Below are positions 2,345 to 11,554 of a stretch of DNA of 64,000 nt, one piece after another. The stretch comes from Escherichia coli (GTDB lineage: Bacteria > Pseudomonadota > Gammaproteobacteria > Enterobacterales > Enterobacteriaceae), in NCBI RefSeq assembly GCF_013122565.1, contig NZ_CP053258.1. One strand, 5' to 3'. A model generated the notes under the pieces. It did not search any database. It was not told the origin of the DNA and was given only the letters and a program-made list of their open reading frames with translations. How positions within the stretch are numbered: the stretch's first letter is position 1; each line of letters starts with the position of its first letter. Both the position numbers and the translations under genes were made by a program.

Positions 2345-4936
2345 ATGCATCAATCTGGTTCTGTTTCTCTTTGTCGTTCCGCAATATCTGTTCTGGTGGC
2401 TACAGCGTTATATTCACCCATAGCATTGGCATCAACAGTTGAGTATGGTGAGACAGTTGATGGTGTTGTCCTGGAAAAAGATATCCAGCTGGTTTATGGG
2501 ACCGCCAATAATACGAAAATCAATCCTGGCGGAGAACAGCATATTAAAGAATTTGGTATAAGTAGTAATACTGAAATTAACGGCGGGTATCAGTACATTG
2601 AAATGAATGGCACCGCAGAATACTCCGTATTAAATGATGGTTATCAAATTGTTCAAATGGGTGGCGCGGCAAACCAGACTACCCTCAATAATGGTGTGCT
2701 ACAGGTTTATGGCGCAGCGAATGATCCCACGATTAAAGGCGGGCGCTTAATCGTTGAAAAAGATGGGATTACCGTCCTTGCCGCTATCGAAAAGGGAGGA
2801 TTACTGGAGGTTAAAGAGGGGGGGTTAGCGATTGCGGTAGATCAGAAAGCCGGCGGTGCTATTAAAACAACCACGCGGGCCATGGAGGTATTCGGAACAA
2901 ACCGTCTCGGTCAGTTCGATATCAAGAATGGTATTGCTAACAATATGCTGTTGGAAAACGGCGGAAGTTTGCGAGTTGAAGAAAATGACTTCGCTTATAA
3001 TACTACTGTAGATAGTGGCGGCTTACTGGAGGTTATGGATGGCGGGACTGCAACTGGCGTTGATAAAAAAGCAGGCGGAAAATTAATTGTCTCAACGAAT
3101 GCGCTGGAAGTGAGTGGTACAAACAGTAAAGGCCAATTTAGTATAAAAGATGGTGTGTCAAAAAATTATGAACTGGACGATGGTTCCGGGCTCATTGTTA
3201 TGGAGGACACGCAGGCCATTGATACTATCCTTGATGAGCATGCCACTATGCAATCGCTGGGAAAGGATACTGGTACGAGAGTGCAGGCAAATGCGGTATA
3301 TGATCTGGGTCGATCAGATCAGAATGGAAGTATCACGTATTCCTCTAAAGCCATCTCTGAAAATATGGTTATCAACAATGGCCGCGCTAATGTCTGGGCA
3401 GGCACAATGGTTAACGTTTCAGTCAGAGGGAATGATGGCATTCTTGAGGTCATGAAGCCGCAAATAAATTATGCACCCGCTATGTTGGTGGGTAGTGTCG
3501 TGGTTTCTGAGGGCGCTTCTTTAAGAACGCATGGTGCCGTGGATACCAGCAAAGCGGATGTTTCGCTCGAAAATAGCTCATGGACCATCATTGCCGATAT
3601 CACTACGACGAACCAAAACACCCGCCTCAATTTAGCCAACCTTGCGATGTCTGGCGCAAATGTGATTATGATGGATGAGCCAGTGACTCGTTCATCTGTG
3701 ACGGCAAGTGCGGAAAATTTCACTACGTTGACCACCAATACCCTGTCGGGAAACGGCAATTTTTATATGCGTACCGATATGGCTAATCATCAGAGCGATC
3801 AGCTCAACGTCACCGGACAGGCAACAGGTGATTTCAAAATATTCGTGACGGACACCGGTGCCAGCCCGGCAGCAGGAGATAGCCTTACACTGGTAACAAC
3901 GGGCGGCGGTGATGCTGCATTTACGTTGGGCAATGCCGGAGGCGTTGTTGATATCGGTACGTATGAATATACCTTGCTGGATAATGGCAATCATAGCTGG
4001 AGTCTGGCAGAGAATCGCGCGCAAATTACCCCTTCAACCACTGATGTGCTAAATATGGCGGCAGCACAACCGCTGGTATTTGATGCAGAACTGGACACCG
4101 TGCGTGAGCGTCTTGGTAGCGTAAAAGGCGTTAGTTACGATACGGCGATGTGGAGTTCGGCAATTAACACCCGCAACAACGTGACCACTGATGCGGGCGC
4201 TGGTTTTGAGCAAACATTGACGGGCCTGACGCTCGGTATCGATAGCCGTTTCTCCCGTGAAGAAAGCAGTACAATTCGCGGCTTGTTCTTTGGTTACTCT
4301 CATTCTGATATTGGTTTTGATCGCGGCGGCAAAGGCAATGTCGATAGCTATACCCTGGGTGCTTATGCCGGTTGGGAGCATCAGAACGGTGCCTATGTTG
4401 ATGGGGTGGTGAAAGTTGACCGTTTTGCCAACACCATCCATGGCAAGATGAGTAATGGGGCAACAGCGTTTGGCGATTACAATAGTAACGGCGCGGGTGC
4501 TCATGTTGAGAGCGGGTTCCGTTGGGTTGACGGATTGTGGAGTGTTAGACCCTATCTGGCCTTTACCGGCTTTACCACAGATGGTCAGGACTACACGTTA
4601 TCAAACGGCATGCGCGCGGACGTGGGAAATACCCGGATATTACGCGCTGAAGCGGGAACGGCGGTAAGCTATCACATGGACCTGCAAAACGGTACGACGC
4701 TGGAACCCTGGCTGAAAGCCGCCGTGCGTCAGGAATACGCCGATTCTAACCAGGTGAAAGTTAATGACGATGGCAAATTTAATAATGATGTGGCTGGAAC
4801 CAGTGGCGTTTATCAGGCTGGGATAAGGTCATCGTTTACCCCGACGTTAAGCGGTCATTTGTCAGTCAGCTATGGCAATGGCGCAGGGGTAGAATCACCG
4901 TGGAATACTCAGGCGGGTGTGGTCTGGTCGTTCTGA
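2345..4936 (+). CDS. yejO: Adhesin-like autotransporter (type Va secretion), apparently intact, 863 aa
   Basis: N-terminal signal peptide, repetitive Gly/Thr/Asn-rich passenger region, C-terminal beta-barrel translocator ending in …AGVVWSF; located next to tRNA-Pro and narP. Confidence 0.8.
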   Translation: MHQSGSVSLCRSAISVLVATALYSPIALASTVEYGETVDGVVLEKDIQLVYGTANNTKINPGGEQHIKEFGISSNTEINGGYQYIEMNGTAEYSVLNDGYQIVQMGGAANQTTLNNGVLQVYGAANDPTIKGGRLIVEKDGITVLAAIEKGGLLEVKEGGLAIAVDQKAGGAIKTTTRAMEVFGTNRLGQFDIKNGIANNMLLENGGSLRVEENDFAYNTTVDSGGLLEVMDGGTATGVDKKAGGKLIVSTNALEVSGTNSKGQFSIKDGVSKNYELDDGSGLIVMEDTQAIDTILDEHATMQSLGKDTGTRVQANAVYDLGRSDQNGSITYSSKAISENMVINNGRANVWAGTMVNVSVRGNDGILEVMKPQINYAPAMLVGSVVVSEGASLRTHGAVDTSKADVSLENSSWTIIADITTTNQNTRLNLANLAMSGANVIMMDEPVTRSSVTASAENFTTLTTNTLSGNGNFYMRTDMANHQSDQLNVTGQATGDFKIFVTDTGASPAAGDSLTLVTTGGGDAAFTLGNAGGVVDIGTYEYTLLDNGNHSWSLAENRAQITPSTTDVLNMAAAQPLVFDAELDTVRERLGSVKGVSYDTAMWSSAINTRNNVTTDAGAGFEQTLTGLTLGIDSRFSREESSTIRGLFFGYSHSDIGFDRGGKGNVDSYTLGAYAGWEHQNGAYVDGVVKVDRFANTIHGKMSNGATAFGDYNSNGAGAHVESGFRWVDGLWSVRPYLAFTGFTTDGQDYTLSNGMRADVGNTRILRAEAGTAVSYHMDLQNGTTLEPWLKAAVRQEYADSNQVKVNDDGKFNNDVAGTSGVYQAGIRSSFTPTLSGHLSVSYGNGAGVESPWNTQAGVVWSF

Positions 4937-7377: not shown

Positions 7378-8385
7378 ATGAGTCTGGATATCAACCAGAT
7401 TGCTCTGCACCAGCTTATCAAGCGTGATGAGCAGAACCTTGAGCTGGTGTTGCGCGATTCATTGCTGGAACCGACAGAAACCGTCGTTGAGATGGTGGCA
7501 GAACTGCATCGGGTCTATAGCGCCAAAAATAAAGCTTACGGCTTGTTTAGCGAAGAGAGTGAACTGGCGCAGACGCTGCGCTTACAGCGTCAGGGCGAAG
7601 AGGACTTTCTGGCATTTAGCCGCGCGGCAACCGGTCGCCTGCGTGACGAATTAGCGAAATATCCTTTTGCTGACGGTGGATTCGTGCTGTTTTGCCACTA
7701 CCGTTATCTGGCGGTGGAGTATCTGCTGGTGGCAGTCCTGAGCAACCTGAGCAGTATGCGCGTTAACGAAAATCTCGACATCAACCCAACCCATTATCTT
7801 GATATCAATCATGCGGATATTGTTGCGCGTATCGATTTAACCGAATGGGAAACCAATCCAGAGTCGACCCGCTATCTCACTTTCCTGAAAGGGCGAGTAG
7901 GGCGCAAAGTGGCGGATTTCTTTATGGATTTCCTCGGGGCCAGCGAAGGGTTAAACGCGAAAGCGCAAAACCGTGGGCTGTTGCAAGCGGTTGATGATTT
8001 CACTGCCGAAGCACAACTGGATAAAGCAGAGCGACAGAACGTGCGCCAGCAGGTTTATAGCTACTGTAATGAGCAGCTGCAGGCAGGCGAAGAGATTGAA
8101 CTGGAGTCGCTGTCGAAAGAGCTGGCAGGCGTCAGCGAAGTGAGCTTCACGGAGTTTGCGGCTGAAAAAGGCTACGAACTGGAAGAGAGCTTCCCGGCAG
8201 ACCGTAGCACACTGCGTCAGTTGACGAAGTTTGCCGGTAGCGGCGGTGGCTTGACTATTAACTTTGATGCGATGCTGTTAGGTGAACGCATCTTCTGGGA
8301 TCCGGCGACCGATACCCTGACCATTAAAGGCACGCCGCCGAATTTGCGCGACCAATTGCAGCGCCGGACGTCTGGTGGGAACTAA
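7378..8385 (+). CDS. yejK: Nucleoid-associated protein YejK (NdpA)
   Basis: 335-aa ORF ([19 protein letters not shown]…), conserved gene order. Confidence 0.9.
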
Positions 8386-8765
8386 ATCTCCAACGCGAAT
8401 GTTTCTTTTCGGAGAAACAGTTGCGGGATAATCACAATTCTTGTCAATCAGTTAGTGAGATGACTTGCTGATTGACCTTTCATTCGAAAATGTTTTCTCT
8501 GTTATTATACTTAGTGTTACTGAAAATATTATTCTCTTATCCCCTTTATTCGATAATAAATCGGTCTGGTCACTATTTCCGCCGTTTTTTGTGAGCTGTA
8601 ACACTGGAAAAATCATTCTGTTTAATTATATTGAGTTTACTTGGCGTTATATGTTGTTATTTGCTTTGACTATATAAAATGCAAATGTATTCTTAATGTC
8701 AATATTATTGTCGTTATGTTTGACTCATTATATTAATCGTATGAATAGTTTTAAGGATTCACCGC

Positions 8766-9338
8766 ATGGAGCAAGAAAATCCTGAAGATAGAAAGTGTTG
8801 TCGACCGAAAAAAACGTTCTCTTTAACCAGAAAATTACTGGTATGTTTTATCTTTACCCTCATTGTATTCAGTGGTTGTTTATTTGTCGTTATGAACACG
8901 GTCATTCATAACACCAGCACTGACAGCTTTTGCCTGGGTTGTCATGAAATGAAAGACAACATCCTTACCGAGAGTTTCAAAAAATCCATTCATGGCAGTA
9001 ATCGTACTGGCGTGAAAGTCGCTTGTGCCGATTGCCATATTCCTGATGAATTTGTCCCTAAGATGATCAGAAAAGCCCACGCCGTTAAAGAGGTTTGGGG
9101 GCATATGACAGGCGTAATTGATACGGCCGATAAATTCGATGCACATCGTGGCGAAATGGCAAAAGCGGAATGGGCAAGAATGAAAGCAAACAATTCGCAG
9201 GAATGCAGAGACTGCCACGATATTTCTAAATTACAGAAAAAATTTATGGCGCCGTTCCATGAGGCTTCTCTTAAAGAAGGGAAAACATGCATTGATTGTC
9301 ATGCCGGCATTGCACATAAATTACCAGCAGTTCATTAG
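8766..9338 (+). CDS. NapC/NirT/CymA-family membrane-anchored tetraheme cytochrome c (putative quinol dehydrogenase)
   Basis: 190-aa ORF with an N-terminal transmembrane helix and four CxxCH heme-binding motifs (CLGCH, CADCH, CRDCH, CIDCH); AAGGA Shine-Dalgarno sequence 8 nt upstream; AT-rich codon usage. Confidence 0.85.
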   Translation: MEQENPEDRKCCRPKKTFSLTRKLLVCFIFTLIVFSGCLFVVMNTVIHNTSTDSFCLGCHEMKDNILTESFKKSIHGSNRTGVKVACADCHIPDEFVPKMIRKAHAVKEVWGHMTGVIDTADKFDAHRGEMAKAEWARMKANNSQECRDCHDISKLQKKFMAPFHEASLKEGKTCIDCHAGIAHKLPAVH

Positions 9339-9431
9339 TCATTAATACATGAATGTCATGTCTGTCTGGTTTCAAATAAAAACAAGAAGGGTTTCATGTT
9401 GATTTAAGTTTTTATGTAAAAGGACCATGTT

Positions 9432-11072
9432 ATGAGGAAACTAAAAAGGGGATTCTTATTGGCTGGGGTATTAACGGCACTTTCTCTAAGCGCTTATGCT
9501 GACAGAAATATGAATAAGATCCCGCATATCAATCTGTCGAATCCATCCGTCGAACCAGTTAGTGAGAGAATAATCCAAACAGATATTGTTGTTATTGGCG
9601 GTGGGCTTTCTGGCATGTCCGCAGGGTTGACTGCAGTACAGGGCGGAGCCAAAGTTGTTATTTTTGAAAAACTACCAAGCCTTGGAGGGGCAGGCGTTTA
9701 TCCTGAAGGCAGTTTAGGCATTGGCACCCTTATGCAAAAAAAAGAGGGGAAAGGTGCCACGCTGAATCAAGCCTTTGGTAAGGCGATCGATTTCCATCAC
9801 TGGCGAGCCAATGCTAGTGCATTGCACGCATTAATGAAAAACTCAGGCGAAACCATTGATTGGGTTGCCAGTAATGGCGTTGAGTTTACGACCTTAAAAA
9901 CCACCATTTATCCTCAGTCAGATTCATTATGGACCTGGCATATGTATAAGCATAATGGTGCATCTGTTACTAAAAGCTTTTACAAGAAGATCCTTGATGG
10001 AGGTGGGCAAATCTACACCGAAACTCCTGTTAAGAAGATTCTTCGCGACAAACAAAGCGGTGATGTCGTTGGCGTCGAAGCGGTTAATAGCGTAACAGGG
10101 GAAAAAATCATTGCCTATGGTAAGGGTGTGATTGTGGCGACCGGTGGTTTTGCCAACAACCGTGACATGATTGAAAAATACATCACCGATGTGAATCAGA
10201 AAAACATGGTGCCGGTCAAACTACGTGGCCCCCTGATTGATGGACGCGAAGGCGATGGTATCAAAATGGGGCAAGACATTGGCGCTGATACTGCCGGGAT
10301 GCAAACCATTGCTGGCAATAGCCCATATGTCGATCAAGACCCTCCTATCCGTCAGTTTAATGGCGCGGATTACCAAAAACAGGCCAGAACGTCATTAAGC
10401 CAGCCATTCCTGTGGATTAACCGACAAGGCGAGCGTTTCTTTGATGAGTCACTCGGTTCCAGTTTTACCCTCGTTTATAACGCTATCACCATGAATGGCG
10501 GAGTCATGTATTCTGTCTGGGATGATGCAATGCGCCAGAAGATGGTTAACGAAGGGCCGGTTACACCGTTTAACGCCATCGTGTTGCCTGGGCAGCCGAT
10601 GAAGGCGCTGGATCAGGCGATCGAAATCGGCATGAAAGAAGGGTGGTTATTTAAAGGTGAAACGTTGGACGATCTGGCAAAACAGATCAATGTTCCTGCA
10701 GACAATCTGAAAGCGACGATTGCGAAAGTAAACAAGTATACGGATGAAGGTTTCGATCCTGACTGGGGGCGCAAGAAAGAGCATCTGTTTAAATTTCAGG
10801 ATAAAGGACCGTATTACGCCGTGAAAGGTATTCGGGCTTATTTCCTGACGCTGGGTGGTTTGAAAATGAACAGCGATCTGCAGGTCTACGATACCAATGA
10901 GAAGATTATCCCAGGTCTGTATGTTGTCGGGCAGGATATGGGCGGTCTGTATGACAGCTCCTATGATTTGGTACTTGAAGGATCGGCTTCTGGCTTTGCG
11001 TTGACGTCGGGACGTATGGCAGCGAAACATATTATAAGCACCAGAGTGCAGGCACAGGGAGGAGGCAAATGA
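9432..11072 (+). CDS. Periplasmic FAD-dependent flavoprotein reductase, fumarate-reductase/flavocytochrome-c family (substrate unknown)
   Basis: 546-aa ORF; signal peptide MRKLKRGFLLAGVLTALSLSAYA; dinucleotide-binding fold VVIGGGLSGMSAG; C-terminal FAD-binding motif of the FrdA/SdhA family (…GLYVVGQDMGG…); its stop overlaps the next start (ATGA). Confidence 0.85.
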   Translation: MRKLKRGFLLAGVLTALSLSAYADRNMNKIPHINLSNPSVEPVSERIIQTDIVVIGGGLSGMSAGLTAVQGGAKVVIFEKLPSLGGAGVYPEGSLGIGTLMQKKEGKGATLNQAFGKAIDFHHWRANASALHALMKNSGETIDWVASNGVEFTTLKTTIYPQSDSLWTWHMYKHNGASVTKSFYKKILDGGGQIYTETPVKKILRDKQSGDVVGVEAVNSVTGEKIIAYGKGVIVATGGFANNRDMIEKYITDVNQKNMVPVKLRGPLIDGREGDGIKMGQDIGADTAGMQTIAGNSPYVDQDPPIRQFNGADYQKQARTSLSQPFLWINRQGERFFDESLGSSFTLVYNAITMNGGVMYSVWDDAMRQKMVNEGPVTPFNAIVLPGQPMKALDQAIEIGMKEGWLFKGETLDDLAKQINVPADNLKATIAKVNKYTDEGFDPDWGRKKEHLFKFQDKGPYYAVKGIRAYFLTLGGLKMNSDLQVYDTNEKIIPGLYVVGQDMGGLYDSSYDLVLEGSASGFALTSGRMAAKHIISTRVQAQGGGK

Positions 11073-11479
11073 GTAAGCTATTGAAGAACATTGTCACAAT
11101 CATTCTTGCTGGCGTAATGTGCACCGTTATCGGTATGGTTTCTGCCAGTGCACAAGAGATTGTCGGCATGAAAATGCACAAGACCATTGGTCTGGAATGT
11201 AATAACTGCCATGTTGATGATGTTAAAGCCAACAAGAATATGACGCCAACGTGCGTTAGCTGCCATGCGCCTGGTGAGCGTTATTATCATGGTAAGAAGG
11301 ATTCAGAAGGTAACTCAGTGTTAAAAGAGTATCCGGAGTCGGGTAAAACACGAGTTGCGTCTTTCCATGACTCTCATGGCGGGGAAATTCGCTGTACGGT
11401 ATGCCATACGTCACATGAGAAGGAACCACAGCCACTCTATTGCAACAACTGCCATCAGTTTGATGTGAAGATTAAGTAG
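11069..11479 (+). CDS. Small periplasmic tetraheme cytochrome c
   Basis: 136-aa ORF with N-terminal signal/anchor and four CxxCH motifs (CNNCH, CVSCH, CTVCH, CNNCH); strong GGAGG ribosome-binding site; translationally coupled to the flavoprotein gene. Confidence 0.8.
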   Translation: MSKLLKNIVTIILAGVMCTVIGMVSASAQEIVGMKMHKTIGLECNNCHVDDVKANKNMTPTCVSCHAPGERYYHGKKDSEGNSVLKEYPESGKTRVASFHDSHGGEIRCTVCHTSHEKEPQPLYCNNCHQFDVKIK

Positions 11480-11504
11480 TGAAGGTATTTGTCAGTCGCT
11501 GAAA

Positions 11505-11537
11505 AAGAAAACGGCCCGTAAAGGCCGTTTTCTTTTG
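11505..11537. terminator. Bidirectional intrinsic terminator between the cytochrome gene (+) and rplY (-)
   Basis: Hairpin aaacggcc-cgtaaa-ggccgttt flanked by an A-rich stretch upstream and a T-rich stretch downstream. Confidence 0.65.
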
Positions 11538-11554
11538 TTCAACTTATTCAGCAA

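Follow-up and report, generated by a model that had tools for sequence, protein, structure and literature searches.

A split flavocytochrome c operon at the yejK-rplY locus of an Escherichia coli strain, likely introgressed from a cryptic Escherichia lineage

In a stretch of 64,000 nucleotides of Escherichia coli DNA (NCBI RefSeq assembly GCF_013122565.1, contig NZ_CP053258.1), hereafter called the window, the spacer that otherwise separates yejK from rplY is replaced by a block of three genes (positions 8386 to 11532, as delimited by homology comparison with E. coli). We consider it likely that this block is a functional operon for a quinol-dependent periplasmic reductase, built as a split flavocytochrome c that probably serves an acceptor other than fumarate, and that it entered this strain by introgression from a cryptic Escherichia lineage. 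The module belongs to a known kind of system but is a great rarity in this host, and the findings overturn nothing in current understanding. Such a module would nevertheless give Escherichia a periplasmic reductase for organic acceptors that the E. coli model lacks, and once its substrate were identified, the list of acceptors for enteric anaerobic respiration would grow by one.

Six-frame analysis of open reading frames (ORFs) yields three co-oriented genes on the + strand, which encode in order a NapC-like protein (8766 to 9338, 190 amino acids), a flavoprotein (9432 to 11072, 546 amino acids) and a small cytochrome (11069 to 11479, 136 amino acids). The stop codon of the flavoprotein gene and the start codon of the cytochrome gene overlap as ATGA (AAATGAGT at 11069). 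A first-pass annotation of the window had described three tightly packed genes, the first and third with four CxxCH motifs each, and this same overlap, and both the ORF list and a motif scan agree with it exactly. It had also described the block as AT-rich and preceded by an AT-rich leader of 380 bp, and had proposed that composition and codon usage be compared with the flanks. The leader (8386 to 8765, + strand, from the yejK stop to the first gene) is indeed only 31.8% GC, and the three module genes are compositionally atypical, with 44.8% GC and a GC content at third codon positions (GC3) of 0.40-0.48, versus 52-53% and 0.54-0.62 for the flanking core genes yejM, yejK and radD.

The boundaries of the block are sharp. 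Homology to E. coli ends at position 8385 and restarts at 11533, and the 138-bp spacer of E. coli, which carries an apparent repetitive extragenic palindromic (REP)-type palindrome and its own, different terminator, is wholly replaced. Among 5,426 complete E. coli genomes, all but one (5,425) match the flanks, with identities of 95-99.3%, and ordinary E. coli sequence is also seen far from the module in the window (30-33 kb; best identity 99.2%). Neither megablast nor blastn finds a match for the 3,155-bp block in any of these 5,426 genomes, in keeping with the earlier description of an insertion relative to K-12-like E. coli. The block is an accessory module without a counterpart in such strains.

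The first gene encodes a tetraheme cytochrome c of apparent NapC/NirT/CymA type, which is predicted to be membrane-anchored and to act as a quinol dehydrogenase. Its CxxCH motifs are CLGCH (residue 56), CADCH (87), CRDCH (147) and CIDCH (175), and a hydrophobic N-terminal segment can be read at residues ~23-46. The TIGR02161 NapC/NirT profile matches with an E-value of 2.7e-61 and 206.7 bits, which is below its curated cut-off of 310.6, and the NapC equivalog profile gives 199 bits against a cut-off of 349. Under the curated profiles, the protein is neither a NapC nor a TorC equivalog. The Pfam family Cytochrom_NNT (PF03264) is a precomputed match on the 194-amino-acid alleles at the related loci L002 (E. 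albertii) and L004 (the type found in the unclassified strain Escherichia sp. E4694), and no relative of solved structure was found at E <= 0.01. The window allele has 190 residues versus the 194 of cryptic-clade alleles, and its C-terminal tail lacks ATAV (9312-9338).

The second gene encodes a protein of the FAD_binding_2 superfamily (PF00890, E = 1.4e-43), which carries the dinucleotide motif GxGxxG as VVIGGGLSG, has no CxxCH motif and is expected to bind flavin adenine dinucleotide (FAD). The best-scoring curated family is the VprA vinyl phenol reductase (NF053717), whose profile is matched essentially over its full length (positions 7-479 of 481, E = 9e-93). This likeness is one of profile score, and at 311.7 bits, about half of the equivalog cut-off of 600, the window protein is not a member of the family. 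VprA also differs in that it is not known to have a signal peptide or cytochrome partners. The flavocytochrome c family TIGR01813 gives 172.8 bits and its cut-off of 285.45 is not reached. An AlphaFold (AF2) model with a predicted local distance difference test (pLDDT) score of 80.7 has urocanate reductase (UrdA; 6t86) as its top Foldseek match, with a template modeling (TM) score of 0.84. Fcc3 of Shewanella follows at a TM of ~0.62, and the next matches are 3-ketosteroid and cyclohexanone dehydrogenases. Sequence identity to UrdA and Fcc3 is 21-25%.

The flavoprotein is predicted to be exported by the Sec system and to reside in the periplasm. Its signal peptide, MRKLKRGFLLAGVLTALSLSAYA, has a short Lys/Arg n-region and a hydrophobic core, and ends in AYA before an Asp residue. 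Targeting varies among family members, of which some have no signal peptide, and a true twin-arginine translocation (Tat) motif (RRSFLK) occurs in only one distant homologue, P0135. Export of the window protein by the Tat system was considered and rejected, as its n-region has KR rather than RR and its close signal-bearing homologues show assorted Lys/Arg patterns of the kind usual in Sec signals.

The third gene encodes a soluble tetraheme cytochrome c, whose export signal, like that of the flavoprotein, was read from the sequence and whose CxxCH motifs begin at residues 44, 62, 109 and 125. Its best solved relative is the N-terminal heme domain of flavocytochrome Ifc3 (1qo8 residues 14-88, E = 1.1e-6), and Pfam Cytochrom_c3_2 is a precomputed match on the 136-amino-acid alleles at loci L002 and L004. 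Genes for the flavoprotein and the small cytochrome are also adjacent in homologues of 57-84% identity, whether the NapC gene is present or not (L007, L008, L009 and L014). At the level of protein families, the assignments made by the first-pass annotation are supported: a quinol dehydrogenase of the NapC/CymA type for the first product, a periplasmic FAD flavoprotein for the second and a small tetraheme cytochrome for the third.

Homology to characterized systems suggests how these proteins might work together. The membrane-anchored tetraheme cytochrome would oxidize menaquinol and pass the electrons to the soluble 136-amino-acid cytochrome, which would in turn reduce the FAD of the Sec-exported 546-amino-acid flavoprotein, and the flavoprotein would then reduce an organic acceptor in the periplasm. 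Quinol oxidation by proteins of the NapC/CymA type is not electrogenic, so that the dehydrogenases upstream would be the sites of energy conservation. Heme attachment would be carried out by the Ccm system of the host. The genes ccmH (291 to 1343) and narP (1378 to 2055) do lie ~7 kb upstream of the module, as had been pointed out in the first-pass annotation, but ccm is not part of the module. Because the position of ccm belongs to the core gene order of E. coli, its closeness to the module is coincidental.

The ratio of nonsynonymous to synonymous divergence (dN/dS) ranges from 0.016 to 0.13 for the three module genes, with 0.016-0.03 for the flavoprotein gene and 0.04-0.08 for the NapC-like gene, at synonymous divergences (dS) of up to 0.8-2. 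Therefore, all three genes are under purifying selection.

The closest architectural parallels are systems in which a periplasmic FAD flavoprotein and a small multiheme cytochrome c are encoded side by side, namely FccABC of Wolinella succinogenes, ArdAB of Shewanella woodyi and Mrd/Mcc of Geobacter sulfurreducens AM-1. Electrons enter the Wolinella system through FccC, a quinol dehydrogenase of the NapC/NirT type. The order of napC-like, flavoprotein and cytochrome genes in the window differs from that of these systems, and the Tat signals of FccA and Mrd stand in contrast to the Sec-type signal of the window flavoprotein. The presence of three separate polypeptides, which had been presented as a departure from known reductases, is not one: ArdAB comprises a 52-kDa FAD subunit and an 18-kDa tetraheme subunit, and the flavoprotein and heme subunits are likewise separate proteins in Mrd/Mcc and in W. 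succinogenes, where FccA is paired with its heme subunit (PMC4427408; bioRxiv 10.1101/2024.02.11.579808). The Shewanella proteins Fcc3 and Ifc3, working with CymA, share the fold of the flavin and clamp domains, and the heme domain of Fcc3 is homologous to the 136-amino-acid cytochrome. Fcc3 is also exported by Sec, carries FAD and receives its electrons from a NapC-family quinol dehydrogenase, but its heme and flavin domains are fused, whereas they are separate proteins in the window.

An exact-sequence look-up of the three proteins recovered a few assemblies labelled E. coli, several unclassified Escherichia (E4694, E4930, E10V10, E13S3, E2661 and MOD1-EC7003) and Escherichia albertii. A scan of one genome for each GTDB species turned up close relatives in just three of these genomes, namely Escherichia sp. 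MOD1-EC7003, Citrobacter sp. Cu233 and the type strain of E. albertii, and in all three the block occupies the yejK-rplY locus. E. albertii and Escherichia sp. E4694 carry the same three genes between yejK and rplY. The window allele is nearest to E4694-type strains, at 97-98.5%. The E. albertii insert (loci L002 and L011) agrees with the window in site, genes, order and orientation, and its proteins are 97.6% (flavoprotein), 90% (cytochrome) and 86% (NapC-like) identical, but the backbone of the window is that of E. coli and the nucleotide identity of the block is only 84%. In Citrobacter sp. Cu233, a further gene for a 579-amino-acid fused ATP-binding cassette (ABC) permease/ATPase lies between the cytochrome gene and rplY (L012 7170-8909), and this gene is absent from all Escherichia versions of the locus.

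Comparison of synonymous divergence between the module and its flanks bears on how the block reached this strain. Relative to Escherichia sp. E4694, dS is 0.39 for yejM, 0.29 for yejK and 0.29 for radD, versus 0.14, 0.075 and 0.05 for the NapC-like, flavoprotein and cytochrome genes. Relative to MOD1-EC7003, the flanks give 0.18-0.24 and the module 0.55-0.79, and relative to E. albertii the corresponding values are 0.52-0.64 and 0.79-2.1. These values indicate that several old alleles of the module exist and that the allele in the window was shared recently with an E4694-like lineage, while the backbone is that of E. coli. Sites of E. coli type extend up to 8352 on the left and resume at 11553 on the right, ~33 bp and ~20 bp away from the respective junctions.

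The most likely origin of the block is a cryptic Escherichia lineage, from which homologous recombination would have carried it into an E. coli backbone. The block would have sat in the yejK-rplY spacer of Escherichia and Citrobacter for a long time, being kept only patchily, would have been lost from E. coli proper, and would have been regained in the window strain by homologous recombination through yejK and rplY. Horizontal acquisition, as proposed in the first-pass annotation, is therefore upheld in the form of exchange within the genus but not as a fresh insertion from a distant donor, because E. albertii, other Escherichia and Citrobacter share the locus. Nor is the block a new insertion, given that the same locus is occupied elsewhere and that a 2015 publication already described the copy in E. 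albertii (PMC4700944). The locus would be a clean case of a whole operon moving between Escherichia lineages, in which each crossover lay no more than tens of bases from an end of the operon. A mobile-element origin was also considered and is ruled out by the lack of an integrase, insertion sequence, tRNA, flanking direct repeats and terminal inverted repeats at both junctions (8386 and 11532).

Divergence from the E4694-type allele (L004) falls steadily along the block, from a leader of 92.4% identity through the dS values of the three successive genes to 0.016 for rplY, which may point to a mosaic structure inside the imported stretch. The leader is 74% identical to that of E. albertii.

The strongest competing account of this history has the module passed down vertically from an Escherichia ancestor within this E. 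coli lineage, with later overwriting of the flanks and with the cryptic lineage as a recipient from E. coli. An ancestral module is plausible because E. albertii, Citrobacter and two lineages of unclassified Escherichia share the locus, and the pattern in the flanks is compatible with transfer in either direction. However, the module occurs in 0 of 5,426 complete E. coli genomes and in many cryptic-clade assemblies, and its divergence from E4694 (dS 0.05-0.14) is so far under that of the flanks (0.29-0.39) that recent exchange is needed either way. We regard vertical descent as unlikely.

The same block has previously been described from E. albertii. Ooka et al. (2015, PMC4700944) reported the yejK-yejH insert EACBF2102-2104 as a species marker and used it as the target of their nested PCR (polymerase chain reaction), with the flavoprotein annotated as a fumarate reductase. 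This 'E. albertii-specific' marker is now seen in an E. coli backbone, and because several unclassified Escherichia strains and Citrobacter sp. Cu233 carry it too, the block is not specific to E. albertii. The published primers (PMC4700944 supplement) predict an outer amplicon of 835 bp in the window (9101 to 9935), versus 846 bp in E. albertii, and the inner sites lie at 9143-9161 and 9843-9862. Outer primer E_al_OF matches without mismatch and E_al_OR with one, at its 5′ base, whereas inner primers E_al_NR and E_al_NF have one and three mismatches; none of the three in E_al_NF falls within the last five 3′ bases. With outer sites that are perfect or nearly so, false positives of the E. albertii assay are plausible in silico. 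A literature search found, among the papers available to it, no published report of cross-reaction of this PCR with cryptic clades. For diagnostics, the consequence is that an E. coli strain, and cryptic Escherichia as well, carry the target of a published 'E. albertii-specific' assay.

In several E. albertii assemblies, the flavoprotein is annotated only in a form shortened at its N terminus (520 or 504 amino acids, without a signal peptide) or as fragments of 79, 133 or 312 amino acids (proteins P0014, P0015, P0020, P0021 and P0022). This suggests pseudogenization or start-site problems in part of the species.

The nature of the acceptor was approached through the active site, with a profile built from 26 family members (identities of 49-98%) that was aligned to Fcc3 and UrdA. 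The first-pass annotation had proposed an unsaturated carboxylate-type acceptor and had recommended that the Arg and His residues that bind fumarate be compared with those of Fcc3 and UrdA. These residues are not conserved. The substrate-binding His365 of Fcc3 aligns with Asp303, which is variable in the family, and the proton donor Arg402 aligns with an invariant Ser343. The substrate-binding pair His503/His504 aligns with Phe471 (invariant) and Leu472 (nearly invariant), and Arg545 of the carboxylate clamp aligns with Leu514. Thus His365, Arg402, His504 and Arg545 are all replaced, and among these four positions only that of Arg402 holds a family-invariant residue. In addition, Gly547 of Fcc3 aligns with an invariant Glu516. 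The invariant set of the family comprises Ser343, Phe471, Glu516, Tyr299, Tyr349 and Arg468, and its conserved motifs are GNSPY, QPFLW.N..G.RF.NES.GS.F..VYNA, RA(F/Y)FLTLGG and YDL.LEGSAS.

Because all four clamp residues are replaced, and with the TIGR01813 score below its cut-off, the enzyme probably does not use an acceptor held by the usual Arg/His carboxylate clamp, and fumarate is very unlikely. Instead of fumarate, the enzyme probably reduces a different organic acceptor, possibly one that is not a carboxylate. One suggestion, which derives from the sub-threshold VprA match, is a vinylphenol-type compound from plant phenolics. Other respiratory flavin reductases that lack the canonical arginines are active and depend on essential clade-specific residues (Little et al., bioRxiv 10.1101/2022.12.26.521950). 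The gut cinnamate reductases of clades 2-4 in that study resemble the window flavoprotein by description, being FAD_binding_2 enzymes of the respiratory type in which two canonical arginines are not conserved, but they come from Sutterella, Eggerthella and Holdemania.

A more far-reaching and tentative idea, which we judge possible but improbable, is that the flavoprotein stands for a separate clade within the fumarate-reductase superfamily, one that is widespread among Desulfobacterota and Syntrophia and rare in enterobacteria, in which the Arg/His residues have been exchanged for invariant Ser, Glu, Tyr and Phe and a non-carboxylate acceptor is reduced via a CymA-like chain. If true, some Escherichia would respire a non-carboxylate acceptor that is used by no known enteric respiratory enzyme. 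Gene context at six distant loci reveals no consistent catabolic or transport genes near the flavoprotein homologues. The only recurring neighbors are the cytochrome partner, a Crp/Fnr-family regulator (L009 and L014) and a siderophore-interacting protein (L007 and L013). The gene for the last of these (FAD_binding_9/SIP, of the ferric reductase type) adjoins the flavoprotein homologue at L007 930-1727 and L013 5795-6631, in unrelated contexts: L007 is a metagenomic module of 84% identity, and L013 is from Brenneria corticis, with genes for a siderophore nonribosomal peptide synthetase and a TonB receptor nearby.

Two other assignments of function must be weighed against a reductase for a non-fumarate acceptor. 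One, in line with the unsaturated carboxylate-type acceptor of the first-pass annotation, is that the module is a canonical periplasmic reductase for fumarate, acrylate, methacrylate or urocanate, of the Fcc3, ArdAB, Mrd or UrdA type, with an alpha,beta-unsaturated carboxylate as its acceptor. UrdA and Fcc3 are the nearest solved folds, the partner cytochrome is homologous to the Fcc3/Ifc3 heme domain, the architecture equals that of FccABC and ArdAB, the database annotation reads 'fumarate reductase flavoprotein subunit', and both the Joint Genome Institute (JGI) and Ooka et al. annotate a fumarate reductase. However, the four substrate-binding or catalytic residues of Fcc3 are replaced in the window flavoprotein, whereas Mrd keeps its catalytic Arg, its carboxylate-binding Arg and its His (R353, R501 and H461; PMC4427408), which are not retained in the family of the window protein. 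Taken with the better match to VprA than to the flavocytochrome c profile, whose cut-off is missed, and with the low identity to UrdA and Fcc3, this makes a canonical carboxylate reductase a poor prospect.

A reversal of electron flow is an equally poor one. The flavoprotein would then be a periplasmic dehydrogenase or desaturase whose electrons travel via the two cytochromes to the quinone pool. KstD, Delta4-(5alpha)-KSTD and cyclohexanone dehydrogenase are the next-best matches in fold and sequence and likewise lack the Arg/His set, and NapC/NirT-family proteins can act as quinone reductases, as does cytochrome cM552 of Nitrosomonas. Against this, every characterized system that combines a NapC/CymA protein with a small tetraheme cytochrome and a flavoprotein (Fcc3, ArdAB, Mrd/Mcc and FccABC) is reductive, and low-potential tetraheme cytochromes of the c3 type suit the delivery of electrons to FAD. 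Finally, that the block is a decaying remnant without present function in this strain is highly improbable, for despite its loss from essentially all E. coli, the truncated or fragmented flavoprotein calls in some E. albertii assemblies and the four-residue C-terminal deletion in the NapC-like allele, the three ORFs are intact, the signal peptides and all eight CxxCH motifs are present, dN/dS is 0.016-0.13, and the promoter elements and terminator are conserved.

Several considerations weigh against our preferred interpretation of an introgressed reductase operon for a non-fumarate acceptor. The direction of transfer is read from prevalence, that is, from 0 of 5,426 E. coli genomes versus many cryptic-clade assemblies, and how electrons flow and which class of substrate the clade uses are both assigned entirely through homology. 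The active-site equivalences come from a sequence-profile alignment rather than from residue-level structural superposition, and the surroundings of His365 and Arg402 are variable. A nearly invariant Arg319, which aligns with Arg381 of Fcc3, is present in the family, and together with the invariant Arg468 it could hold a carboxylate in another geometry. A Sec-type signal on an FAD protein would require that FAD be loaded in the periplasm, for which the precedent comes from outside Escherichia, in Shewanella Fcc3, which acquires its FAD there. Lastly, the leader contains no FNR box (TTGAT-N4-ATCAA with <=2 mismatches), and therefore anaerobic control is unproven.

The leader carries signals that probably drive the operon from a conserved class II promoter of the Crp family. 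In an alignment of leaders from five taxa, TTTGTGA-N6-ACAC (8590-8605) and TTATATT (8626-8632) are nearly the sole invariant elements, even in Citrobacter, whose leader is otherwise barely alignable. The first includes a Crp-family-like box, TGTGA-N6-ACACT (8590 to 8605, + strand), which agrees with the CRP consensus at 8 of 10 positions and fits CRP better than FNR. The second includes a candidate -10 hexamer, TATATT (8627 to 8632, + strand), identified in a promoter scan by consensus match only and paired with TGGAAA (8605-8610) across a spacer of 16 nucleotides. Transcription would start near 8639, which would place the center of the box at -41.5, as in class II promoters of the Crp/Fnr family. 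In two distant homologues (L009 and L014), the Crp/Fnr-family regulator gene lies directly upstream. Control of the module by FNR was considered and is unsupported; FNR-like matches number 46 across the window, which is not above chance.

Upstream of these elements, the yejK stop is followed immediately by two strong hairpins (8389-8428 and 8443-8476). The region contains an inverted repeat, and the fold of 8384-8484 reaches -33.4 kcal/mol with a z-score of -4.6. The hairpins probably terminate yejK transcription. The second (GTCAATCAG...CTGATTGAC) is kept in the leaders of Escherichia and may be a yejK terminator or an operator.

At the other end of the block, the earlier description of a bidirectional intrinsic terminator shared with the convergent rplY gene is borne out (11503 to 11536). 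The inverted repeat forms a perfect 14-bp stem (100% complementary) with a 6-nucleotide loop, preceded by a run of A and followed by a run of T, and it folds on both strands, at -24.4 and -27.9 kcal/mol (z-scores of -4.8 and -6.8). This hairpin was overlooked by a simple terminator scan and was found by direct folding.

Outside of the module, the window carries an intact gene for an 863-amino-acid autotransporter between narP and yejM (2345-4936, + strand), whose beta-barrel domain scores 372 bits. E. albertii has an 862-amino-acid counterpart at the same place, and K-12 presumably carries the disrupted pseudogene yejO at this narP-yejM position.

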